24,000 bases of DNA, taken from NCBI RefSeq assembly GCF_002245785.1, contig NZ_NNCE01000001.1, forward strand, positions 65,365 through 89,364, in the 5' to 3' direction. Of this stretch, positions 2 to 23,621 are shown piece by piece; the stretch's first letter is position 1, and every line of letters begins with the position of its first letter. Under the pieces are notes generated by a model, which was not told the DNA's origin, ran no database searches, and saw only the letters and a list, made by a program, of their open reading frames with translations. This DNA comes from Mycoplasma testudineum. Lineage in GTDB: Bacteria; Bacillota_I; Bacilli_A; Mycoplasmatales; Metamycoplasmataceae. The position numbers and the translations under genes were made by a program.

Positions 2-307
2 CAATTGCTGCCAGGACATGATGAAGATGATATTGAATTAATTAAAAAATGTTTTAAAGATAATGATCTATCAAAATTAACGATTGATGAAATTGTCGAC
101 AGAATACCAAATTCAAAAAAATTAAGTACATTTTTATTAGATGATGATTGTAATTGTTCTTTTGATAAAAAAGTTAATAGTATTAAAAATTTAGATGAAA
201 ATGTAATTAATGATTTATATAAAAATAAAGATACAGTCGAAGTTAAATGTCCGCAATGTGGTAAGAGTGATTTTATTAAAAAATCAGATTTAGGAAAGGA
301 AAATTAA
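2..307 (+). CDS. hypothetical protein, C-terminal part only (5' end outside window), with four-Cys zinc-ribbon-like motif
   Basis: Frame is open from the window edge to TAA 305-307. No family recognised. CNC then about 30 residues then CPQCG near the C-terminus. The stop overlaps the next ATG (TAATG). Confidence 0.5.
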   Translation, partial: QLLPGHDEDDIELIKKCFKDNDLSKLTIDEIVDRIPNSKKLSTFLLDDDCNCSFDKKVNSIKNLDENVINDLYKNKDTVEVKCPQCGKSDFIKKSDLGKEN

Positions 308-1806
308 TGTATAAATTTATTAAAATTGATGATTTATTGTATCTTGAATTTGATCAAGATATTAAAAAAGGTACACGTATCTTGTGAGATGATTTATTAC
401 AAAAAGTTCCTTCATACGGAAAAAGAAAAATGTTAAATGAAACATTTAAAAGTAATGCCGTTTATAAAGATGATTATAAAGATTTAGAACAATTTTTTTT
501 AAGTAGTCCAGTTTATGAAAATTTAGAAAATGAAAACAAATTAAAAATTGCAAATATAAAAATTCAAAAAGATAGTGAAATAATGGAATTGCAAAAATTA
601 CATGAACAAGAATCAAAAAGATTAGCCGAAACAATTACAGACCTTAATGCTATTAAAAGTAAATTAGATTTAGAAATTGTTGCTCTTAAAGGTCGATTGA
701 ATAATTTTGAAACCGAAAAACAAAAAGAAATTTTAGAGTTAGAACACAAAATGGATAATGCAATAAATTATGATAAACAGCAAAGCGAAAAAATAATCAA
801 CGAGCTTAATGAAAAAATTATCAATTTAAAAAATGACAATCAAAATTTAATAAACAATAAAGAACAGGAAATCACGATTGCAAAAAGCAAAGCCGAAATA
901 GATGCAAATAAAAAAATTGATGAAATTCGTATAGAAAAAGAAGAAAAAATTCAAAAAATGGAATTATCATTTACTCAAAAAATAAGTGAACTTGAAACTA
1001 CAAATTCTCATTTAGAAATGAATTTAAAACGAAAAGATGAAGATCTAGCTAATTTAAAAAGAGAAAAACAAAGCATAAATATCAAACTATTAGGTGAAGA
1101 ACTTGAAGAAGATATTTTTCAAAAAGTTACAAATAAATATGGATTGCTTGCTGAAGGAAAAATCAAATTTGAAAAAACAACTGCACCAATTAAAGGTACT
1201 AAACCTGATTTCTTATTTGAAATTATGGATGGTAAAAAAACAGTTATGAAAATAGTGATTGAAGCAAAAACATTCCAAAAATTTGATAATGATGGTAACC
1301 CTATGTTTGGAAGTACAAAAAACAGAGATCACTATTCAAAATTAGAAAAAGATAGAAATAATTTCAAGGCTGATTATGCAATTTTAGCTACAGAATTAGA
1401 ACCGCAAAACAATTTTTTAATTTCAAAACCTACCGAAAAAGAATACAGAAATATATTTGTTGTGAGACCTCAATATTTAGATAGTTTATTAGATATGTTT
1501 GTAAATATTGCAGACAAATTAAGGATAATAAATAATAAGATTATTAATTTTGAAGAAAAAGAAAATATTATTGAAAAGTTCAACAATATGAAAGACTCAA
1601 TCCTAAATATCACTATCAAAAACATTGATAATCAAGCTAATAAAATTGAAACGGCAAATGAAATGATCAAAAAACAAAGCGATATTATTGCTGCATCAAT
1701 TAGAACTATGATTGACTCTCACATAAATACCTTGAAAAATAAAATGGAAAATTTCAATATTATTAAGATGGCTGAAAAAATCTCCAAACTTGAAATGGAA
1801 GAATAA
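307..1806 (+). CDS. DUF2130-like protein: long coiled coil plus C-terminal PD-(D/E)xK-type motif (499 aa)
   Basis: ORF-track 430..1806 extends upstream through TGA 385-387 (Trp) to ATG 307, preceded by the GGAAAGGA SD. The central region is K/E/L/N/I-rich and coiled-coil-like. KPDFLFEI...IVIEAKT gives a D...ExK pattern. The architecture is recalled as the DUF2130 family and was not searched. Confidence 0.6.
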
Positions 1807-1810
1807 AAAA

Positions 1811-1840
1811 ATCTGCTTAAATCGAATAAGCAGATTTTTT
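1811..1840. terminator. bidirectional rho-independent terminator shared by the DUF2130-like gene (+) and deoA (-)
   Basis: Perfect 9-bp stem ATCTGCTTA (1811-1819) / TAAGCAGAT (1827-1835) with a 7-nt loop. An A-run lies upstream and a T-run downstream. The deoA stop (1839-1841) sits in the T-run. Confidence 0.7.
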
Positions 1841-3140
1841 ATTTCAATTGTTCAAAAATTATTGTATTTGCAACTTGTTTATCTTCTAAAGAATAAGCAC
1901 CTTTAAATAAATTAGTAATTGAATTAGGAATGGGTTTTGAAGAATAAAGTGTAAATAATACATCGTCTTTTTGGACAACATCATTAGTTTGTTTATTAAA
2001 TCAAATCCCGGCTTCATTATCTAATATATCTTCTTTAGTATGTCTTCCTGCCCCTAATTCTAAAGCTGTAATACCAAATGCTAAAGCATCTTTAATAACT
2101 AAATAACCTTGTTTGTCTGCTTTGATATCTAATGAATATTTTGGATTTCATCATTTATCTTGAGTAATTTCTTCAAAATTTCCGCCCTGTGCTTCTATGA
2201 AATTTTTAAATGAATCTAAAGCACTTCCTTGTCTGATTACTTTTTCAATTAATGTAATTGCTTCACCTTGTGTTTTAGCTTTTTGAGCCATAATTAATAA
2301 AGTTGCTGCTGATGAATAAATAATTGTTTTAATATCATTAGCATAATGACCTTGCAATGTTTGAATTGCTTCAAGAACTTCATTTTTATTTCCGATTGCT
2401 CTACCTAGAGGACGATCCATGTTTGTAATTTCAACTCTTACTTCACGATTTAATAATTTACCAATGGCAATCATTCTTTTACCAAGTTCTCTTGCACTTT
2501 TAATAGTTTTCATGAAAGCACCTTTACCAACTTTTACATCTAATAAAATTTTATCTGAACCAGTAGCAAGTTTTTTTGACATTATTGATGAAGCAATTAA
2601 TGGAATTGAATTAACTGTACCTGTTACATCTCTAAGTGCGTAGATTAATTTGTCAGCAGGAACTAATTTTTCATCTTGACCAATAATTGCCATATTAATT
2701 TTATTAACTTGATTTTTAAAATCATTATCGCTTAATGATATTGAAAAATTATTAATAGATTCAAGTTTATCAATTGTGCCTCCAGTATGACCTAAACCTC
2801 TACCACTCATTTTGGCAAATTTAACACCGCAAGCAGCTAAAATAGGACCTAAAATTAAACTAATTTTATCCCCTACTCCACCTGTAGAATGTTTGTCAAC
2901 TTTGATACCAGAAATATCACTTAAATCTAAAATAGAACCGCTGTACATCATTGCCATTGTTAAATGTGTAAGTTCTTCATCATTCATTCCATTAAATCTT
3001 ATTGCCATTAATAATGATGACATTTGATAATCTTTAATTCTTTTATCTACAAAACCATTAACAATAAAATTTATTTCATCTTTAGAAAGTTCTTGATTTT
3101 GAAATTTTTTTTCAATTAAACTAACAATATTAAAATCCAT
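1839..3140 (-). CDS. deoA: pyrimidine-nucleoside (thymidine) phosphorylase, 433 aa
   Basis: N-terminus with the KHSTGGVGDK motif and SGRGLGHTGGTIDKLES. ORF-track 2151..3140 ends at TGA. Reading TGA as Trp (two adjacent at 2148-2153, one at 2001-2003) continues the frame to TAA 1839-1841. I checked every codon and found no TAA/TAG. Confidence 0.9.
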
Positions 3141-3143
3141 TTT

Positions 3144-3842
3144 TTAAATTGCTCCTAAAGCAACTTCGATCATTTTAGTAAATTTATTTTGTCTTTCTTC
3201 ACTAGAAGTTTCTTCATGTGTTACTAAATTGTCACTGATTGTTAATAAACATGCTGCTTTTTTATTTAATTTTTTTGCAACTGCAAATAGTGCTGATGAT
3301 TCCATTTCAACAGCTGCTGCTTGAGTTAATTTAATTGTTTCATCTAAATCTCTAACTGCATAAAAAACATCTGATGAGTGAACTCTTTCTAATTTAACTT
3401 CAATTCCAGCTTTTTTTGCAGAAGCAATTAATTTGTCATTTAATGAAGAACTAGGTTTTCAAATATTAGATTTAATTCCTGCTATTATTTCTCCAAAACT
3501 ATCATTATCTGTATAAGCTTCAGTTGCTAGAATTACATCGTAAAGATTTAAATCTTTAGTATAAGCACCTGCTGAACCTACTCTAATTATTGATTCAACT
3601 CCGTAATTTGCATATAGTTCATGAGAATAAATTCCTATAGAAGCATTACCCATTCCACTAGCAGCAATAGTAACTTCTTTACCTTTATATGTTCCTGTGT
3701 ACATAAACACATTTCTAACTGTGTTTACCAATCTTGGATTTTCCAAAAATTGTTCAGCCATATGTTTAGCACGAAGTGGGTCTCCTGGCATTAAAACAAA
3801 TTTAGCGATGTCGCCTTTTTTAGCATTTATGTGTGGTGTCAT
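3144..3842 (-). CDS. deoD: purine-nucleoside phosphorylase DeoD type, 232 aa
   Basis: MTPHINAKKGDIA...LMPGDPLRAK...GMGNASIGIYSHEL...RVGSAGA is typical DeoD. TGA at 3459-3461 read as Trp extends to TAA 3144-3146. Only 3 nt separate it from the deoA start. Confidence 0.9.
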
Positions 3843-5449: not shown

Positions 5450-6472
5450 ATGGTTAACAAAAATAAAAAAGCGAAAAATTCAAAAATTCAAAAAGAAAAA
5501 AAATTTTATAAGTCTGCTAAATTGACCTATGCCGAAATAGCAGCAAGAGCCAATGTAGGTATTGGAACTATTTCGCGTTTCTTTAATAATGGTTATATCA
5601 GTGAAATAAGTGCATCGAGGATTTCATCGGTAATAAAAATGGAGCAAGAAAAACAACATTTTCTTTCTAGGAAATACAATCTTGAAGAAAAAAAATATTA
5701 TTTAATTGCTAAAAAGTTTTCTGACCAAGACTTAATTAATATAATGAATACTTTGGATAGCGGAACTAAAATACCGTTTAATCAAATTTCAATTATAAGT
5801 GTTGGCAATGATAATGATACTTACTTTAGAGAACTAAAAAATGCCATTAGCAAGTTACCTAATGGTATTGTTTTAATTAATCCACCTAAATATCCACCTA
5901 TGGTTAAATATTTAGAAGAAACATCATATTTACCCAAAATTGTCTCATTTGGTTCAATTATTGAAGGTGTAAATTCTGTTTACATCGACTATAAAAAAAT
6001 TATCGAAGAAATCAGTACTGAATTTGTTAACGCAACAGGTGATAGAGGCTTGGCACTAGTAACTGATTCAAGACTAAATCTTCAGGCAGTAAAATTGCAA
6101 ACAGAAATGTTTATAGAATTTTGTAAATCAAGCAACAATTATTGCAAAATTAAATTTTTTGACAGTAAAAATAATTCAACAATTACAAACGTAATAAGTG
6201 AATTAAAAGAAGCTTCAATTCGCAATGCTATTTGTACAACACATGAAGTGTTTCAGAATTTAATGATTTATAATAATGATAGTTACTTTAGATTAAGTGA
6301 TATAGGATACAATAATATTTTTGATTACAATAGAGGTTACTTTATAAAAGAATTTATCGACTATTATCAAATATATTTAGAAATAGAAAGAATTTTATTA
6401 AGTGATGATATGACACCAGTTATTTTGCCAATTCAAGGAAGCTTAATAAAACCAGAGATAGAATATGATTAA
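5450..6472 (+). CDS. LacI-family transcriptional regulator, 340 aa
   Basis: LacI-type HTH TYAEIAARANVGIGTISRFFNNGYISEISASRISSVI follows a Lys-rich 24-aa N-terminal extension. The C-terminal region has periplasmic-binding-protein-like length. Confidence 0.8.
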   Translation: MVNKNKKAKNSKIQKEKKFYKSAKLTYAEIAARANVGIGTISRFFNNGYISEISASRISSVIKMEQEKQHFLSRKYNLEEKKYYLIAKKFSDQDLINIMNTLDSGTKIPFNQISIISVGNDNDTYFRELKNAISKLPNGIVLINPPKYPPMVKYLEETSYLPKIVSFGSIIEGVNSVYIDYKKIIEEISTEFVNATGDRGLALVTDSRLNLQAVKLQTEMFIEFCKSSNNYCKIKFFDSKNNSTITNVISELKEASIRNAICTTHEVFQNLMIYNNDSYFRLSDIGYNNIFDYNRGYFIKEFIDYYQIYLEIERILLSDDMTPVILPIQGSLIKPEIEYD

Positions 6473-7301
6473 ATTAGGTTCACACGTTCCATTTAGTGCA
6501 CCCGGTTACCTTGAAAAAGCAATTGAAATAAGTGTTAATAATAAGGCTAATTGTGCAATGATATATTTAGGAGCGCCCCAAAATACTAAAAGAGTAGCAA
6601 TTGAAAAATACAATTTAGAAAAGTACAAACAAAAATATGAAACTATAATTTCCTTAAAAGATATTATAGTTCATGCACCATATATTGTTAATCCATCTAA
6701 TCCTGATAAGCAAGAATTTGCAGTTGAATTTTTAACACAAGAAATTGAAAGAATGCATAAAACTGGATTAGAAATTTTAGTATTGCATCCAGGCGCTTTT
6801 ACAAATCATTCAGTTGATATTGCAATAAACACTTTAATAAGTTCATTAAATCAAATTTTTGAAAATACTAAGTATAGTAATGTTTCGATTGCTTTGGAAA
6901 CTATGGCGGGTAAAGGTACTGAAATTGGGATTAAATTTGAACAGCTTTTAAGAGTGATTGAAGCAGTTAAATCACCAAGATTATCAATTTGTTTAGATAC
7001 TTGTCATTTATGAGATGCAGGATACAATTTAAAAAAATACGATGAATTTAAAAAAGAGCTTGTTGCAAAAGATTTACTTAAACATGTTTCGGTAATTCAT
7101 TTAAATGATTCTAAAAATGATTTAGGTGCAGCAAAAGATAGACATGAAAATATTGATAAAGGATTTATTGGTTTAGAAACTTTGGCAAAATTTGTTCATG
7201 ATAAAGATTTTGATAATATCCCTATTGTTTTAGAAACTCCAATACCGGAAAATGGTCCGATATATGATAAAGAAATTGAGATGTTAAGGAAGGCAAAATA
7301 A
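6465..7301 (+). CDS. nfo: deoxyribonuclease IV (endonuclease IV), 278 aa
   Basis: MIKLGSHV...VHAPYIVNPSN...HPGA...ALETMAGKGTEIG...CLDTCHLWDAGY...IHLNDSK...DRHENIDKG...LETP are metal-ligand motifs typical of Nfo. TGA 7011-7013 read as Trp. The start overlaps the LacI-like stop (ATGATTAA). Confidence 0.9.
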
Positions 7302-10919: not shown

Positions 10920-10948
10920 ATATGCAAATTGTACTTTGCATATTTTTT
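10920..10948 (+). terminator. rho-independent terminator of the ABC exporter operon
   Basis: ATATGCAAA (10920-10928) / TTTGCATAT (10935-10943) form a perfect 9-bp stem with a 6-nt loop, followed by TTTTT. Confidence 0.7.
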
Positions 10949-11004: not shown

Positions 11005-11036
11005 TTGACTATTATTTAATTTCAAATTTATATATA
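11005..11036 (+). promoter_or_regulatory. candidate promoter of the nuclease cassette
   Basis: TTGACT 11005-11010, then a 17-18 nt spacer, then TTATATATA (11028-11036). AAGAGG SD at 11064-11069 precedes ATG 11074. Confidence 0.4.
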
Positions 11037-11073
11037 AAAATTGTTTAATGAGATAATAAAACAAAGAGGTTTT

Positions 11074-11898
11074 ATGAAAAGAAAATACTACAATAATAAA
11101 GATTATTTTTTGGATTTGAATACTAAAAAACTAACTTTATCTGAAGAATTACACAAAAAATTATTAAATAATCAAATGGGATTCAATAAAGGTTTTAAAA
11201 AAATAACTGCTTCAAGAGCTTCGAATGTTTTGGCATTAGGACATTTTGATTCACCCTTTGCTGCTTTTTGTGATATTTCATATATTGGTTTACCAATGCT
11301 TGATACAAAATACGTAGATGCTGGAATAGCAATTGAACCCAAGGTTTTAGATGCTTTAAAAAGTCACTTCAAAAATTATACTTTTGAAACATATGATCAA
11401 AAAGAATATAACTTTGATTACTTTGCTGATAAGGATACCGTTATAGGTGGAACACCAGATGCTTATATTCCTGAAATCAATACAATTATTGAAATTAAAA
11501 CCACGGGTTTTAAAAATTACACTAACTGAACTGATGCTCCTTTAGGATATCAACGACAAGCACAGTTGTATTCATTTTTAAAAGGTAGTAAACAATTTTG
11601 AATTGTTGCAACATTTTTAGAAGAAAGTGATTATAAAAATCCACATGATTTTCCAATTGAAAAAAGAAGAATCAAAACATTTAAGTTTAAATTAGATGAA
11701 GCAATGGTTAAAAACGATATTGCATATATCAAAAAGTGGTATGAAATTTATACACAATCAGGTATCAGCCCAGAATTTGATTTAAATAAAGATGGTGATT
11801 TAATCGAATATTTAAAATGTGAAAATGAAGTTGAATGACAAAAATTAATTGACAAATGGAAAGAGGTCGGAAAAGCTAATGCAATATTCGAAGGATAA
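11074..11898 (+). CDS. YqaJ/lambda-exonuclease-like PD-(D/E)xK nuclease, 274 aa
   Basis: The motif series GIAIE, GGTPDAYI, IIEIKT (D...ExK) and YQRQAQLY matches YqaJ-type viral exonucleases. Three in-frame TGA codons. I chose ATG 11074 (good SD) over the track's TTG 11041. From memory it resembles proteins labelled 'MAGa7180 family putative nuclease' in Mycoplasmopsis genomes (not verified). Confidence 0.75.
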
Positions 11899-12604
11899 AA
11901 TTTTAAAATTTATTCAGTTTAGTAATTATCACCAGTTTAAAAATCCATATTTCACTTGAAATTCATTTGAAAAGTCTGCAATTACGGAAGAAGATTTAGA
12001 CGATTCTGAATCTAACATTGAAGAATTGTTATGGGATTTTGGTGAAGAAAATGATGAGGTTTCATACCGGAGTGTAAGTGATGCAGTAAATGTATTCAAA
12101 TTACATAATGATTCAGCAGTTCAAACATTATGTGAAAACTATCATGATAGTGAAATTGTTTTTATTGACAAAAAAATGGAACCTGAAATTAGGTATAAAA
12201 AAACAATTCAAGCATTTGAAAACGAAAGTGTGAAATTAATAATTAACCCATTCATTTATACGGATAAATATGAATTGAATTTGTTTTTTATTGACAAACA
12301 TCAAAAAGAAATTGGCGCCTTAAAATTTTCTGCCAAAACACTTGCAAAAGATTTTTTAAAAGCATTTTATAATTTATTTTTAATTGACGATCTAGATAAA
12401 ACTTATTTTAGCGATTTAGTTAATTACAATTATTGTATTTTAATTATGGACTATTTAAATTCATTAGAAAAAGGAAAAATTAGTTATAAAAAAACTTACA
12501 CAATCAATATTCAAAAAACATTCGCATTTGATTCTAAAAGAAAAAATGATTTAATCGTAAGCAATTATGTTGATGAACTAATTAAAAAATCAAAATTTAT
12601 ATAA
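11879..12604 (+). CDS. N-terminal (RecB/Cas4-like fold) portion of a DUF2779-type protein, ending at in-frame TAA; 241 aa
   Basis: ATG 11879 lies 20 nt inside the preceding gene. TGA at 11957-11959 read as Trp joins it to ORF-track 12026..12604. The segment LIINPFIYTDKYELNLFFIDKHQKEIGALKFSAKT aligns by eye with the core strands of the nuclease domain preceding DUF2779. It shares a frame with the downstream ORF. Confidence 0.55.
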
Positions 12605-12706
12605 GGTGAGTATGTTTTTAAAAAAAGAGATAATGATATAAAAAATCGCAAAGCAAATTTACCATATTCATATCTAAATTATTCTGTTAAAGAAATATTT
12701 AATAAA

Positions 12707-13816
12707 ATGAAAGATGGCACTTTACATTCTTCAATTAAATATGATAACGAAATTTACAAACTGGTTAGTTTGATTGAAAAACCAATTTATATTTATAATG
12801 AAATTATAAGGCGCAAATCTATAAGCAAATTAGTAATAGATAAATATGATTTAGAAAGCCGGCTATATAATAAATTTAGTGATGTTCCATTTAAAAGTGA
12901 TTTACTCACTTATTTTTATCCAGATGCAAAAAAGTACAATCAAGTAAAGTTTAAATTACATAAATTAGCTTCAGAAGCTGAATGAATTAATTTGAAAAAA
13001 TATATTGAGAAACTAGAAAAAGAATTAAAAGTTGTTGATCAAGAATTAACAAAAACTGAAATTGATAAATATTTAATAAAAGACATTAAATACATATGAT
13101 ACGATTTTGAAACTATATCTTTTCCTTTTTGCGCAATTGATAATTTTGTTCCCTATACAAAAATTCCTTTTCAAGTTTCAATAATTAGAACAATGAACAG
13201 CACACAATTACAAGGTGAAGATGAAGCCGAAAATTTAATAATAGATCCAATTAACATTGATTTAGAACAAATTGCAAAATTTATAGATCGAATCTATTCA
13301 TTTGCAGATTTACAAAATAATTTACCTGCTAGATATATTACATATAATAAGGCATTTGAAAATAGTGTTTTAAGAAGTATTGTTAATATCATGGAAATGA
13401 GTAATTTTTTAAACTATGAAATTTATCAAAAAAAAGTAGAGCAAATTATTGATAATACACTTGATTTAAATGATTTTTTTAAAGAAAGCAAAAGCTTAAT
13501 TTTAATTGGTGAATTGTACTGAAAATCAAGTATCAAATTAGTTGAAAAATTTATAACAAAACATAACTATCCTTTTAAAAATATGATAATTCCATATTCA
13601 TCTTTGGATATTCAAAATGGACTAGTCGCAATGGAAGCTGGGATCAAAAGATATATGGGAAATATAACTGATGAAGTATGAAAAAGTGATTATGAAAAAA
13701 ATTTAAAAACATATTGTGAAAATGATGTTAAAGCAATGTTAATGGTTTTTGAATTAATTAAAGATATATTCAAAAACCAATATCCTGAATTAGGAAATTT
13801 TTCAAATCCATATTAA
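12707..13816 (+). CDS. DUF2779 domain protein (DEDD/RNase-H-like exonuclease-type motifs), C-terminal portion; start uncertain
   Basis: W-YDFETISFPFCAIDNFVPYTKIPFQVS, YNKAFENSVL and YCENDVKAMLMVF form the DUF2779 signature as I recall it. Four TGA=Trp codons join the track pieces 12707, 13193 and the tail to TAA 13814-13816. The first in-frame ATG is 12707, but the frame is open back to the TAA at 12602, and an SD plus ATG at 12612 is one base out of frame (see findings). Confidence 0.7.
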
Positions 13817-13817
13817 T

Positions 13818-13842
13818 AAAAAAACAAAGCCAAACTGGCTTG
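13818..13842 (-). terminator. candidate rho-independent terminator of ftsZ (minus strand)
   Basis: AAGCCA (13827-13832) / TGGCTT (13836-13841) form a stem with a 3-nt loop. On the minus strand it is followed by TTTGTTTTTTT (complement of 13818-13828). Confidence 0.45.
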
Positions 13843-13861
13843 TTATCAAATAATTTTCTAA

Positions 13862-13905
13862 GATAATTAATTTCTTCGAAACATCGAAATTAGTTATCTT
13901 TTTTT
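13862..13905 (+). terminator. candidate rho-independent terminator of the nuclease cassette (plus strand), overlapping the last ftsZ codons
   Basis: Composite hairpin: outer 9 bp (13862-13870 with 13890-13898, one G-U) and inner 5 bp TTCGA/TCGAA (13875-13879 with 13884-13888) around a 4-nt loop, followed by T7 (13899-13905). Confidence 0.5.
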
Positions 13906-15098
13906 GAAAATCAATTTGGCAACTTGCTTTTCTTAGCTTTGTTTAATGTAGTTTCATTGGTTTTGGTTCCAAGGTCAAAATGTGTTGTTTGTAAAATTTT
14001 ACTTGTCAAACTCAATTTTTCAGAAGCTGGTAAAGGATCATCTAAAAGAAATTCTTTTGTTGATTCTTTTTCATATTCAATTTCTAATGTTTTAACCAAC
14101 TCAATAACTTCTGTTTTTTGTTCAACGGAAGTTATTTTTCTACTTGTATCAATTCCTGTGGCAATAACGCTTACGTACATCTCGTCATCATTTGAATCAT
14201 TTATCTTTGTACCAAAAATAATATTTGTGTCTTTACCAGTAGCTTCGGTAATAACTGCAACTGCGGTATTTATCTCCTTTAAGGTAACATTCGAACCACT
14301 AATGTTGATGATTGCATCACTAGCTCCTTTAATTGAATTTTCAATTATAGGACTAGAAATTGCATGAACAGCAGCACTAGCAGCTCTATCTTTACCTGTA
14401 GCTCGACCAATACCAACAATTGCATTACCTTTATTTGCCATTACGGTTTTAACGTCTGCAAAGTCCAAATTTATTCTAGCCGGAACTCCGATAATATCAG
14501 TTAAAGTTTTAACGGTTTGTTTTAAGATGGTATCAGCATAAACAAAACTATCATTTAATGGAACATCACCAAATTGTTCAAGTAATTTATCATTGCTAAT
14601 AGTAATAATTGAATCAACTTTTGATTTTAGTTTATCAATTCCTTCAAGAGCATTATTTTTTCTTTTGTTCCCTTCAAACATGAAAGGAGTAGTCACAATT
14701 GCAACAACTAAGGCACCAGCACTTTTTGCAGCTTCAGCTACAATAGGTGCAGCACCCGTTCCTGTTCCACCACCCATTCCGGCAGTGATAATTACCATAT
14801 CCGAACCTTTAACAACAGCTTTGATTTCTGCAAGACTATTTTGTGCAGCTGCTTCACCTATTTTTGGATCAGCTCCTGCTCCTAGTCCTCTTGCACTATC
14901 TTTATTATCACCTTCGTTACCTAAGTGAATTCTATTTTCAGTTAAAGAATTTTCTAGAGCCTGTTTATCGGTGTTAGCAACATAAAATTCAGCGCCTTGC
15001 AAATTACTCTGAATCATGTTATTAACACTATTAGTCCCTGAACCACCTACACCAATAATCTTAATTGATGCTGTGGGTACAAATTGTTTTTCCTGCAT
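13890..15098 (-). CDS. ftsZ: cell division protein FtsZ, 402 aa
   Basis: IKIIGVGGSGTNSVNNM, GAGADP and GMGGGTGTGAAP are tubulin-signature motifs. The track stop at 13911-13913 is TGA. In code 4 the ORF continues 7 codons (WFSKKDN) to TAA 13890-13892. AAGGAA SD lies upstream. Confidence 0.93.
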
Positions 15099-19916: not shown

Positions 19917-19993
19917 GGGAGCGTAGCTCAGTTGGTTAGAGCACACGACTGATAATCGTGAGGTCGATGGTTCGAGTCCATTCGTTCCCACCA
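19917..19993 (+). tRNA. tRNA-Ile (anticodon GAU), CCA encoded
   Basis: Cloverleaf folded by hand: acceptor GGGAGCG/CGTTCCC, anticodon stem CACGA/TCGTG, loop CTGATAA, T-loop TTCGAGT. 77 nt. Confidence 0.9.
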
Positions 19994-20606: not shown

Positions 20607-20683
20607 GGAGAAGTAGCTCAGCTTGGCAGAGCACTTGGTTTGGGACCAAGCGGTCGAAGGTTCAAATCCTTTCTTCTTCACCA
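20607..20683 (+). tRNA. tRNA-Pro (anticodon UGG), CCA encoded
   Basis: Acceptor GGAGAAG/CTTCTTC (one G-U), anticodon stem CTTGG/CCAAG, loop TTTGGGA, T-loop TTCAAAT. 77 nt. Confidence 0.9.
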
Positions 20684-20689
20684 TTTTAT

Positions 20690-20766
20690 GGGGGGGTAGC
20701 TCACCTGGCTAGAGCGCCTGCCTTGCACGCAGGAGGTAGAGGGTTCGACTCCCTTCCTCTCCACCA
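20690..20766 (+). tRNA. tRNA-Ala (anticodon UGC), CCA encoded
   Basis: Acceptor GGGGGGG/CCTCTCC including the G3:U70 identity pair, loop CTTGCAC. 77 nt. Confidence 0.9.
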
Positions 20767-20770
20767 TTAT

Positions 20771-20847
20771 GGCACTGTAGCTCAGCTGGTTAGAGCATCC
20801 GGTTCATACCCGGAAGGTCATGAGTTCGACTCTCATCGGTGCTACCA
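20771..20847 (+). tRNA. tRNA-Met elongator (anticodon CAU), CCA encoded
   Basis: Loop TTCATAC, anticodon stem TCCGG/CCGGA. Closely resembles Bacillus-type elongator tRNA-Met. 77 nt. Confidence 0.8.
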
Positions 20848-20870
20848 TTTGGAAAAATACTAGCAGTATT

Positions 20871-20946
20871 GGATCTATAACTCAATGGTTAGAGTAACCG
20901 GCTCATAACCGGTCTGTTGCAGGTTCGAGTCCTGCTAGATCCACCA
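20871..20946 (+). tRNA. tRNA-Ile2 (gene anticodon CAU, presumably lysidine-modified), CCA encoded
   Basis: Loop CTCATAA, stem ACCGG/CCGGT, fully paired acceptor GGATCTA/TAGATCC. Position and loop context match the Ile(CAU) member of the conserved Firmicute/Mollicute cluster. 76 nt. Confidence 0.7.
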
Positions 20947-20947
20947 A

Positions 20948-21040
20948 GGGCAATTACCCAAGTCTGGCTGAAGGGAGTAGTCTTGAAAACTACCAGGGGA
21001 TGAAAGTCCCGCGGGGGTTCGAATCCCTCATTGCCCGCCA
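20948..21040 (+). tRNA. tRNA-Ser (anticodon UGA), long variable arm, CCA encoded
   Basis: Acceptor GGGCAAT/ATTGCCC, loop CTTGAAA, long extra arm (GGGGATGAAAGTCCC). 93 nt. Confidence 0.9.
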
Positions 21041-21076
21041 TTTGATATTCATAAATATCACCAAAAAAAACAATAT

Positions 21077-21152
21077 CGCGGAGTAGAGCAGTTGGCAGCT
21101 CGTCGGGCTCATAATCCGAAGGTCATAGGTTCGAATCCTATCTCCGCAACCA
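21077..21152 (+). tRNA. initiator tRNA-fMet (anticodon CAU), CCA encoded
   Basis: C1 opposite A72 (unpaired first pair) in acceptor CGCGGAG/CTCCGCA. GGG at the bottom of the anticodon stem, loop CTCATAA. 76 nt. Confidence 0.85.
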
Positions 21153-21153
21153 T

Positions 21154-21230
21154 GGTCCAGTGGTAAAGTGGTTTAATACGCCTCCCTGTCACGGAGGAGA
21201 TCGCGGGTTCGATCCCCGTCTGGACCGCCA
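21154..21230 (+). tRNA. tRNA-Asp (anticodon GUC), CCA encoded
   Basis: Acceptor GGTCCAG/CTGGACC, loop CTGTCAC, discriminator G. Starts 1 nt after the previous CCA. 77 nt. Confidence 0.9.
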
Positions 21231-21233
21231 TTT

Positions 21234-21309
21234 GGCTCTGTAGCTCAGTAGGTAGAGCAACGGATTGAAGCTCCGTGTGTCGCTGGTTCGATTCCTGCCG
21301 GAGCCACCA
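21234..21309 (+). tRNA. tRNA-Phe (anticodon GAA), CCA encoded
   Basis: Acceptor GGCTCTG/CGGAGCC, anticodon stem ACGGA/TCCGT, loop TTGAAGC. 76 nt. Confidence 0.9.
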
Positions 21310-21411: not shown

Positions 21412-21693
21412 ATGAAAAAACTAAATACACTACTTGATTCAAATAACACAAAAATCGTTTGAGATATATTAGAAGGCTATAATGCATATATTCGTTCAAA
21501 GTCTATTCATCGATCGGTAAAAGAAAATTATTTTGAAGCCACACTAGCTAAATTAAGTGATTTACAAAGAATTATATTTTTAAAACACTTTTTTAATATT
21601 AAAATGCCAGCCGAACTTAATTTAGATTTGCTAACTTTTAAGCAAAATTTATATTTAACAACTAATAATTTCCTGGAGAACTTTTATGCTTAA
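21412..21693 (+). CDS. small hypothetical protein with possible sigma-70 region-4 / YlxM-like HTH, 93 aa
   Basis: TGAGGT SD then ATG 21412; one TGA=Trp (21460). The C-terminal half LSDLQRIIFLKHFFNIKMPAELNLDLLTFKQNLYLTTNNFLENF follows the L-x2-x-Q-R-x-hh-hL...helix-turn-helix spacing of region 4.2/YlxM proteins. Recognition is by eye only. Confidence 0.4.
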
Positions 21694-22219
21694 TAATTCA
21701 GAACCAATCCAAGTTTATGAGCACAAAATTAATATGGTAGCTCACTATAAAGTAAATACAAAAGTAACTCCAACTGAAAGACATGATGTTGAAATTAAAA
21801 GATATTTAAGAGATGATACTTTTAGTGTTAAAACAACTTTCTATTCTACTCGTAAAAGAAATATTGTTTTTGCTTTACAAATCAATAATAAAAATATTGC
21901 ACAAAGCAGCAATTTCTATCTTGAACCAGGTGATAATAAAACACATATATTCGATGCAATTCACATCAAACACAAATTAACCGAGGTTGACAATTTAAAA
22001 GTTGTAGTTATTGACTATTCTAATCAAAGATTATCTGATTTCTTATTTATTACAGATTTAAATATTTCTTTAAGTGATTATAAAAGACAATATTTGATAG
22101 ATAACAAAACGCTTTTGGTAAAGATTCCGCATATTATAAATATATCAAATTGAGCATCACAAATACATAAAGGAGTTCTACCTACAATTGAGACACAATA
22201 CTTAAATTTAGAGCTCTAA
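21686..22219 (+). CDS. hypothetical protein, 177 aa
   Basis: GGAG SD. The ATG overlaps the previous stop (ATGCTTAA). TGA 22151 read as Trp extends the track ORF to TAA 22217-22219. No family recognised; predicted to be beta-rich from composition. Confidence 0.55.
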
Positions 22220-22255
22220 AAGCCTAAATACGACCGTCTCAGACCAATTGAAAAT

Positions 22256-22786
22256 ATGTTGAATTACAGCGTTAAAAATATTAATAATACAGATGTTAGT
22301 CGAGATATAAATATTAAAAGTGGCAAAGTTACTTTTGCACAAGCAGAAGGCTTTGCTAAAATGAGAACCGGGGTGAATTTAGAAATAAATCACAAAGATG
22401 CTTCCGGTAATTTTTTTATAAATTCACAATCGATATATGATTTTGAAAAAGGTATTACAAAAATTGGTCTAGAATCAGGGAGTAAAAATGGACTCTTAAT
22501 CCCTTTTAATTTTAAAGGCAAATATATAATAAAATTCGAAGCAATGTTTAATGAGGCATTTAAGGATATTGAATTTGGCATTGTACAAAACTTTAAATCG
22601 AAATTATTAGATCCCAATGAAGGGACAATAAGACTAAAAATAAAAGAGACAAATCGAGATGATTCACTAAAATGAAAAAGAGGATATATCAGTTATAAAG
22701 ACTTTAACGAAATTATAGATAACGAAGTTACAATTGATTTTTTAAATTTGAAATACTATTACAGGGAACCTAATGTTCAAGATTAA
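22256..22786 (+). CDS. hypothetical protein, 176 aa
   Basis: Track ORF 22256..22675 extended through TGA 22673 to TAA 22784-22786. No SD precedes ATG 22256. It shares a frame with the preceding ORF. No family recognised. Confidence 0.5.
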
Positions 22787-23222
22787 AACAATTAAAGCAA
22801 AGCTTAAAAAACATAGATTATTTATTTCAATTTCATTTGCTGTCTTCGTAATAGTGGGAATAGGATTAGGACTATTTTTTACATTGAGTGGAAATGCATC
22901 CTCAAACACAAATCCGCAAACTCCAAAATCAACTGTAAATGAAAAGTATGCTCCATTACTAAGCAGTCAAGTATTTCATGAAATTGATGAAACTTATTTT
23001 TATTCTGCAATCAAAATACATGATGGATTTATAAAAATAGATCAAGACATAATTGCCAAAATAATTAAGGATCAGATTTCAAGAAACACACTAGGTTACG
23101 GAAATATAACGTATGAATATATTTTATTAACTGATACTAAAATTTTGCTTTCATTGATATGAAGCGATAGCAACAATAATTCACTAACAAAAACATTTGA
23201 AATAAGCGCAATAAGTCTATAA
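22773..23222 (+). CDS. membrane-anchored hypothetical protein (N-terminal signal-anchor), 149 aa
   Basis: The ATG overlaps the previous gene by 14 nt. Basic N-terminus plus the hydrophobic helix LFISISFAVFVIVGIGLGLFFTL. TGA 23160 read as Trp; TAA 23220-23222 followed by a second TAA. Confidence 0.55.
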
Positions 23223-23546: not shown

Positions 23547-23621
23547 AGGAGTATAGTTCAATGGTAGAACAACGGGCTTCAACCCCGTGTGTTATGGGTT
23601 CGAGTCCTGTTACTCCTGCCA
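23547..23621 (+). tRNA. tRNA-Trp (anticodon UCA, reads UGA and UGG), CCA encoded
   Basis: Acceptor AGGAGTA/TACTCCT is perfect. Anticodon stem ACGGG/CCCGT, loop CTTCAAC, discriminator G. 75 nt. TATAAT at 23525-23530 lies upstream. Confidence 0.9.

Follow-up and report, generated by a model that had tools for sequence, protein, structure and literature searches.

An overlapping gene pair of Mycoplasma testudineum encodes a predicted lambda-Exo/RecE-type nuclease and a DUF2779 protein and may serve the processing of DNA ends

Two overlapping open reading frames (ORFs), A and B, lie between an ABC-transporter operon and the convergent ftsZ gene of Mycoplasma testudineum, and the question that they raise is how many nucleases they encode and what the pair does for the cell. 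They were studied in a window of 24,000 nt (assembly GCF_002245785.1, contig NZ_NNCE01000001.1, positions 65,365 to 89,364 of the forward strand; coordinates below are those of the window), in which a previous interpretation of the letters alone, hereafter the sequence-only reading, had seen a self-contained cassette of three nuclease-type domains. Long ORFs of the window contain in-frame TGA codons and a tRNA gene with the anticodon UCA is present at 23547-23621 (+), and for these two reasons the coding analysis was done under genetic code 4. ARAGORN labels this tRNA 'SeC'; in a Mollicute it is the UGA-reading tRNA-Trp, which directly supports code 4 for the window. We found that A (11074-11898, + strand, 274 aa) encodes a MAGa7180-family putative nuclease and B (11879-13816, + strand, 645 aa if intact) a protein of the UU173 family with a DUF2779 domain. 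We are highly confident of the identity of these parts, and much less certain of their role.

ORF A extends from the ATG at 11074 to the TAA at 11896-11898, and its product is 100% identical to EI74_0194 of Mycoplasma testudineum. Its limits and the four motifs from which the sequence-only reading had assigned it to the YqaJ/lambda-exonuclease type were all recovered under code 4: GIAIE (84-88), GGTPDAYI (125-132), IIEIKT (138-143) and YQRQAQLY (159-166). The assignment is borne out by NCBIfam, where A matches NF045870 'MAGa7180 family putative nuclease', an equivalog profile with a curated cutoff of 225 bits, with 357.2 bits (E = 5e-107, profile positions 1-270 of 272); a weaker, sub-threshold match was obtained to NF045868 'MPN551 family DNA-binding protein'. 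Our search of the literature on MPN551 and MAGa7180 found nothing usable. A also matches PHROG 434 'RecE-like recombination exonuclease' (E = 8e-14). Residues E88, D129, E140, K142, Q162 and Y166 are invariant in an alignment of 59 homologues, and they constitute the E...D...ExK...QxxxY catalytic set of lambda exonuclease. The AlphaFold2 (AF2) model of A has a predicted local distance difference test (pLDDT) score of 95 and a predicted template modelling (pTM) score of 0.90. Foldseek aligned it with 3syy (E = 1e-6), 3sm4, 1avq, 3k93, 4ic1 and 3h4r, that is, with LHK-Exo, lambda exonuclease, a Haemophilus phage-related exonuclease, Cas4 SSO0001 and RecE, at E values of 1e-6 to 1e-4 (2e-5 for Cas4 SSO0001, 4IC1) and with target-normalised template modelling scores of up to 0.69. 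A profile search of A against PDB sequences gave nothing significant, and the fold assignment comes from AF2 and Foldseek. Compared with the lambda Exo/RecE/YqaJ group (PF09588; 1AVQ, 3SM4, 3SYY, 3H4R), A has the same fold, the same motif set and a similar size, but its N-terminus is prolonged by about 40 residues that are specific to the family, its C-terminus carries a helical extension, and its identity to the solved structures of this type is only 14-18%. On these motifs and this model we identify A as a predicted lambda-Exo/RecE-type PD-(D/E)XK nuclease with an intact active site; its 5'-3' polarity and its substrate would be those of its homologues.

The second half of ORF B, whose stop codon is the TAA at 13814-13816, matches NF045869 (UU173 family) with 271.5 bits against a cutoff of 225, and the C-terminal half matches PF11074 DUF2779 with 80 bits (E = 2.4e-22, cutoff 23.3). 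Pfam, alignments, AF2 and Foldseek delimit there, at 12974-13783 (+), a predicted DEDDy 3'-5' exonuclease domain with an RNase H-like fold. The motifs WYDFETISFPF, VPYTKIPFQVS, YNKAFENSVL and YCENDVKAM are all present. Following the established motifs of the DnaQ family and a recent description of a homologue (PMC13621843), we assigned D409/E411 in WYDFE, N490/E494 in YNKAFE and Y612/D616 in YCENDV, with D409, E411, E494 and D616 as the putative catalytic residues and Y612 as the putative general base. These seven positions, counting D529, are invariant in alignments of 23 and 13 members of the family. The triad of DEDD type that had been suspected in B is complete, plus the tyrosine. The AF2 model of the C-domain has pLDDT values of 72-94, and with it Foldseek retrieved ExoI, RNase T, RNase D and polymerase proofreading exonuclease domains (probability 0.9-0.98, E about 1e-3 to 1e-2), while a profile search of the domain against PDB sequences returned nothing significant. 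ExoI, RNase T and MrfB (DEDDh/DEDDy) share with B the DxE, Nx3(D/E) and Yx3D motifs and the RNase H-like fold, but in B the acid of the second motif is Glu instead of Asp, large insertions occur and a Cas4-like domain is fused; compared with MrfB, the B locus has no MrfA-type helicase partner. Carrying all DEDDy motifs on this modelled fold, the C-domain is predicted to have 3'-5' exonuclease activity. In agreement, DUF2779 has been placed in the 3'-5' exonuclease clade of the RNase H-like proteins (PMC3985635). The published DUF2779 protein MMSYN1_0389 resembles B in its PF11074 match, its two domains, its DEDD acids and the tyrosine replacing histidine, and by HHpred its closest reported profile match was MrfB, an exonuclease of DNA repair (PMC13621843); for this M. 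mycoides protein no lambda-Exo-like gene is reported upstream. The two genes are not as uncharacterised as the sequence-only reading had taken them to be: both families are curated in NCBIfam (NF045868 to NF045870, consecutive), the Cas4-like plus DEDD architecture of B is already in print (PMC3985635, 2014; PMC13621843, 2026) and phenotypes of B homologues are published (PMC13621843, PMC7373297).

The third proposed nuclease, the Cas4-like N-terminal domain of B, could not be supported as a nuclease. Alignments and AF2 (pLDDT 64-90, alternating helix and strand elements) delimit a folded domain at about residues 60-215 (12056-12523, +), a degenerate homologue of the Cas4/RecB-like domain found at the N-terminus of DUF2779 proteins: it has D139 and K149, but carries A147 where the Glu of (D/E)xK is expected and lacks the Fe-S cysteines. 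Of 23 relatives, only 2 have an acid at position 147 and 12 retain K149. A non-Mollicute DUF2779 protein, P0092, contains the canonical D...IEVK, and a C-x5-C-x5-C cluster present in P0090-P0092 is absent from all aligned Mollicute sequences. Neither Pfam, nor a PDB-sequence profile search, nor Foldseek matched the domain to Cas4 or RecB. Cas4 (SSO0001, 4IC1) and the nuclease domains of RecB/AddB are its presumed evolutionary origin, from which it differs by the lost (D/E)xK acid and Fe-S cysteines and by a context with neither CRISPR nor helicase. Judged from these residues, it is probably a degenerate, non-catalytic descendant of a Cas4-like nuclease. Because the N-domain has neither the (D/E)xK acid nor the cysteines, we count two predicted active nuclease sites in the pair and not three. 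The triad of this domain (Asp186, Glu210, Lys212) is intact in MMSYN1_0389 and was described as conserved throughout the family (PMC13621843); as aligned here, the non-acidic Glu position of the present clade (21 of 23) differs from that family-wide D/E/K claim. A common origin of the N-domain and A was also considered and rejected (hhalign probability 0.05).

In this assembly B is not continuous. Its 645-codon frame, which starts 20 nt inside A as had been read from the letters, contains a sole in-frame TAA at codon 242 (12602-12604, +), and the gene is annotated as a product of 241 aa and one of 369 aa from the ATG at 12707 (OYD27084.1 and OYD27085.1). Since the two halves cover consecutive parts of the 650 positions of NF045869, 2-243 before the TAA and 265-650 after it, they represent one gene that was cut. 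The TAA proved peculiar to this assembly, where base 12603 is A. Over 6825 bp an independent Logan assembly of the same species (SRR12407803) differs from the window at base 12603 alone, where C gives TCA (Ser) and an intact ORF of 645 aa, and the intact protein is also found in another NCBI assembly (TDO21162.1 / WP_133509956.1). B is uninterrupted in all 32 orthologous loci, with no premature stop seen. The codon falls in a hypervariable, indel-rich linker between the two folded domains (AF2 pLDDT below 35). The TAA is a one-base sequencing error or a culture variant of one stock or assembly, and not a property of the gene. Between these two, a nonsense mutation acquired in the laboratory and genuinely present in the sequenced culture is a serious possibility that we hold tentatively; such a stock would make the 241-aa N-fragment and possibly a 369-aa DEDDy fragment. 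Base 12603 lies outside a homopolymer, which means that a simple slip in sequencing is no obvious cause, and a stop in a disordered linker would leave folded domains on either side. Furthermore, an M. bovis mutant whose DUF2779 gene Mbov_0804 carries a transposon at 39% of its length shows normal growth in axenic medium, although it does not grow with host cells (PMC7373297), which suggests that loss is tolerated in culture. Against a genuine stop, two of the three data sets of the species read TCA.

Both genes have features of a common transcription and translation unit. The Shine-Dalgarno (SD)-like sequence AAAGAGG occurs at 11063-11069 (+), 4 nt 5' of the ATG of A, and again within the 3' end of A at 11860-11866 (+), 12 nt 5' of the ATG of B. 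Upstream, the terminator of the ABC-transporter operon (10920-10948, +) has a 9-bp stem (10920-10928 with 10935-10943) followed by a T-run, and folds with -9.8 kcal/mol (z = -3.6). Downstream, the terminator of the A-B pair (13860-13905, +) has a 15-bp stem (13860-13874 with 13886-13900) and seven T residues at 13899-13905, and the region 13814-13910 folds with -21.6 kcal/mol (z = -6.2). None of 200 shuffles was equally stable in either case, and both terminators proposed in the sequence-only reading are substantiated in this way. The downstream hairpin overlaps the last codons and the stop (13890-13892) of the convergent ftsZ gene (13890-15098, -). Another hairpin (13827-13841), small and with its T-run on the - strand, resembles a terminator on the ftsZ side. 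A consensus scan for promoters and terminators needs three G-C pairs; it missed both hairpins and is uninformative in AT-rich DNA, and direct folding was used. The window is AT-rich, with a GC fraction of about 0.23-0.35 that is in itself unremarkable. The promoter that had been claimed for the pair fared less well: a sigma-70-like candidate, TTGACT (11005-11010) and TATATA (11029-11034) separated by 18 nt, is present at 11005-11034 (+), but promoter-like matches are not enriched in the AT-rich region (31 against 27 +/- 5 in shuffles), so that it cannot be distinguished statistically from background and is plausible only.

Whether A and B belong together was addressed by synteny. Word-indexed homology searches for B gave 5 hits with the full protein and 9 with the C-domain alignment, few because the protein is low in complexity, and synteny was therefore taken from loci anchored on A. 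A profile-guided scan with one genome per species yielded 42 loci of Metamycoplasmataceae and 11 distant non-Mollicute loci. By the hidden Markov model of B, B lies directly 3' of A on the same strand in 32 of the 42 loci, in each case as one ORF that is unbroken except where a contig ends, which upholds the pairing, and the stop of A and the start of B overlap in 27 of these 32, which is consistent with translational coupling. The genes to either side lack such conservation, and this holds even for M. agassizii, a close relative. In a clustering of the neighbouring ORFs only A (42/42) and B (32/42) were recurrent, and no third partner within 6 kb on either side of the 42 loci recurs beyond closely related metagenome-assembled genomes. 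As one part of our best overall explanation, which we rate just below an even chance, A and B would be the translationally coupled genes of an autonomous operon that Metamycoplasmataceae have conserved as a unit. Beside non-Mollicute DUF2779 genes an A-like neighbour was looked for and rejected, the ORFs upstream in L055 and L056 having no match to the A profile.

The wider relatives of A bear on where it came from. A search with the A profile against 1.84 billion representatives gave 3920 hits with E values of up to 1e-3, of which 179 had values of 1e-30 or below; most hits are about 350 aa long and with a C-terminal extension. At two loci (L044 and L050) the relatives occur in phage or mobile replication-recombination modules, adjoining genes for an ERF annealase and a primase or D5-type helicase. 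By this kinship A belongs to a phage-derived exonuclease lineage, in which ERF stands only beside distant or phage-borne relatives. Phage exonuclease-annealase (SynExo) modules, where relatives of A adjoin ERF and a single-stranded DNA-binding protein (SSB), differ from the pair in that the annealase is absent from the window and from the 42 loci, and that the conserved partner of A is a DUF2779 protein. Indeed, a tblastn search of the window with two ERF proteins and one SSB gave no match, and inspection of the neighbouring genes found no annealase, DNA methyltransferase, helicase or integrase beside the pair, as the sequence-only reading had noted. That reading had left room for the remnant of a prophage recombination module with a decayed annealase gene, and a decaying SynExo remnant with the TAA as pseudogenisation under way would be suggested by the ERF/SSB context of the relatives and by the premature stop of this assembly. 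It is very improbable and largely refuted: no remnant of ERF or SSB exists in the window and no phage genes lie nearby, a search of 50,697 phage records with the C-domain of B gave no match, neither two other data sets of the species nor B at any of the 32 other loci shows the stop, and the catalytic residues, whose loss had also been considered, are intact and invariant in the homologues of A (59) and of the B C-domain (23 and 13). The chromosomal operon contains no annealase partner for a lineage that has one elsewhere.

Two further relatives of A are recorded here as side observations. A contig of a UGA=Trp organism (L061, 2142-7147, Logan SRR31200909, code 4) has a phage-like module with a full-length Mollicute-type A, a 109-aa ORF, two metallophosphatases, ERF, an MBL-fold (Apyc1-like) protein and SSB, and is possibly a Mollicute phage recombination cassette. 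The protein P0206 (L060, 6001-7857, ENA contig ERZ27257897) has 618 aa, and a Mollicute-type A domain makes up its C-terminal half; for the first 320 residues Pfam gave no match, and the N-terminus (KLVIALDVATKISG...) is reminiscent of an RNase H/RuvC-like fold.

What would such a pair do in the cell? Published phenotypes of B homologues speak for housekeeping more than for defence. The DUF2779 protein of JCVI-syn3.0, MMSYN1_0389, is quasi-essential, which polar effects do not explain, and the authors of that study concluded that its action must go 'beyond bacterial immunity' (PMC13621843). The screen that yielded the Mbov_0804 mutant of M. bovis also hit genes for RecD-like, HolA and DnaB-like proteins and for nucleotide-recycling DHH phosphodiesterases, and in the one knock-out tested, Mbov_0328/0327, the growth defect in cell culture was relieved by nucleotides or nucleosides (PMC7373297). 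Weighing these phenotypes with the predicted activities, we consider the housekeeping processing or degradation of linear or broken DNA ends as the best explanation, with a confidence that falls a little short of even. A would digest the 5' strand at the end of linear double-stranded DNA and the DEDDy domain of B would remove 3' ends, B being kept at the DNA or at A through its probably inactive Cas4-like module, the only task of which is probably to bind such ends or partners. Between them, the two proteins would cover both exonuclease polarities at a DNA end, and would trim or destroy linear and broken DNA in repair and in recombination intermediates, with nucleotides returned to the cell. 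Mycoplasmas cannot make nucleotides themselves. The annealase-dependent recombineering of the phage ancestors is not the use that we propose.

Several observations weigh against this proposal. The match of A to Pfam YqaJ PF09588 is below the gathering threshold (17.4 bits, E = 0.0055, against 22 bits), most homologues of A carrying a precomputed PF09588 match. Polarity and substrate, DNA or RNA, are for both families drawn from distant homologues at 9-18% identity. The cooperation of A with B, be it physical or functional, we infer from the operon structure only. A without adjacent B occurs in 10 of the 42 loci and is intact there. The genes that follow A at those loci look, by eye and without a profile search, like unrelated housekeeping genes, and on this basis a replacement of B was rejected. 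The only neighbour of the M. mycoides B homologue that we found in the literature, MMSYN1_0388, is not described as A-like. Because of A without B and of this neighbour, the two genes can work alone, and the pair is a selected unit but not an obligatory one. Finally, the 'putative prophage' records of M. anserisalpingitidis (L057, MW353169, 7010-10295) and M. anatis (L058, MW353167, 376-3654) contain a full-length A homologue (about 45% identical) but no B; the gene for a D12-class Dam methyltransferase stands divergently beside it, and genes for a DUF6088 protein and small ORFs come after it, a context that hints at a link to mobile elements or defence islands.

The solitary A at those 10 loci opens the possibility that A and B are co-transcribed but act separately, B mainly as a 3'-5' exonuclease of RNA or oligonucleotides in nucleotide recycling and A on DNA. 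Besides ExoI, the best fold matches of the B C-domain include RNase T and RNase D, and the screen that gave the M. bovis B mutant also gave mutants in nanoRNase and cyclic-dinucleotide phosphodiesterase genes, the rescue of the Mbov_0328/0327 knock-out by nucleotides or nucleosides pointing in the same direction (PMC7373297). We consider a separate action unlikely, since overlap and adjacency in 32 of 42 loci despite a changing context argue for a shared function. Additionally, the N-domain of B derives from a family of DNA-end nucleases and the closest profile match of the M. mycoides homologue is MrfB (PMC13621843).

The Dam methyltransferase and DUF6088 neighbourhoods, in turn, recall the suggestion that the pair degrades incoming linear DNA such as phage DNA, transfer intermediates of integrative and conjugative elements or transforming DNA, in the manner of ExoV. 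The descent of the B N-domain from Cas4/RecB-type nucleases (PMC13621843) and the movement of the pair as a unit among differing genomic neighbourhoods would fit such a defence. We regard it as improbable, slightly more so than a separate action of the two proteins. PADLOC-DB 2.0 has no match for B, and for A only a negligible 9-bit hit to DrmA (E = 0.03); the operon has no sensor, ATPase or partner for self/non-self discrimination. The pair occurs in most species of the family, unlike patchy defence islands, it is flanked in the window by core genes (ABC transporters and the dcw cluster) with unremarkable GC content, and a B homologue is quasi-essential in a minimal cell free of parasites (PMC13621843).

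A more ambitious form of the DNA-end proposal includes a helicase. Among the top 150 hits of the A profile, seven proteins (P0109, P0137, P0147, P0150, P0191, P0212 and P0218) have a Pif1/RecD-like superfamily 1B helicase fused to a C-terminal A-like (lambda-Exo/YqaJ-like) nuclease. One of these fusions, from a code-4 contig and embedded in a chromosome, was found at L059, 8001-11390 (Logan contig SRR31200908); it lies between dprA and the genes for ribonucleotide reductase, DHFR and thyA. A resembles these fusions, RecBCD and AddAB in being a PD-(D/E)XK nuclease with predicted DNA-end processing, but differs from such helicase-nuclease machines in that neither the operon nor the 24-kb window encodes a helicase. 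To our knowledge, Mollicutes have neither RecBCD nor AddAB. A and B, possibly with the RecD-like helicase encoded elsewhere in these genomes, could conceivably be the Mollicute machinery for processing double-strand breaks and linear DNA ends, in which A may supply in trans the PD-(D/E)XK site that the Cas4-like domain of B has lost; we give this extension little credence. As a separate point, compensation by A for the dead site of B is unsupported by a correlation, as one B protein of L055/L056 also has no ExK acid.

The rest of the window gives the genomic setting of the pair. Upstream there are two ABC transporter genes, and downstream, on the - strand, ftsZ is accompanied by a 399-aa ORF without Pfam match, rsmH and an ORF at the mraZ position. 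Directly 5' of the ABC transporter genes, at 5450-7301 (+), a weak LacI-type regulator ORF extends over the start of one that matches Pfam AP_endonuc_2, to which endonuclease IV (Nfo) belongs. In M. hyosynoviae (L028), too, there is an nfo-like gene at a distance of about 3.5 kb from A, which the other loci do not have. At 307-1806 (+) a protein of 499 aa has a long coiled coil in its N-terminal half and a C-terminal DUF2130 (E = 1e-38), whose KPDFLFEI...KIVIEAKT resembles a PD-(D/E)XK nuclease motif, so that the window contains another uncharacterised nuclease-like gene. Nucleoside salvage is represented at 1839-3842 (-) by a pyrimidine-nucleoside phosphorylase and a purine-nucleoside phosphorylase (PNP_UDP_1). 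A tRNA-Ile gene is found at 19917-19993 (+), and eight further tRNA genes (Pro, Ala, Met, Met, Ser, Met, Asp, Phe) are tightly clustered at 20607-21309 (+); the long antisense 'ORFs' across the tRNA region are artefacts of the tRNA sequences. They are followed at 21412-23222 (+) by four small ORFs in a row, of 93, 177, 176 and 149 aa. Two of the four were tested and have no Pfam match, and the last, of 149 aa, starts with a hydrophobic stretch that resembles a signal or membrane anchor.

As far as this window is concerned, both genes are ordinary representatives of families already catalogued, and the 'split' of B comes down to a single base in one assembly. According to the searchable literature, four points appear to be unreported: the overlapping A-B operon conserved in Metamycoplasmataceae, the degeneracy of the B N-domain in this clade, the phage ERF/SSB ancestry of A and the helicase fusions of A-like domains. 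JCVI-syn3.0 needs a few dozen genes that have no known function, and those for DUF2779 proteins belong to this set. An overlapping operon of a DUF2779 and a lambda-Exo-type gene, together with a degenerate Cas4-like site and the helicase fusions, turns this into a testable hypothesis of DNA-end processing with dual polarity. If the helicase-assisted machinery were true, it would be the long-missing functional analogue of RecBCD/AddAB in Mollicutes and would explain the quasi-essential DUF2779 gene of JCVI-syn3.0. A dual-polarity exonuclease set, if it exists, could bear on the repair, the recombination-based antigenic variation and the nucleotide economy of these genome-reduced pathogens.

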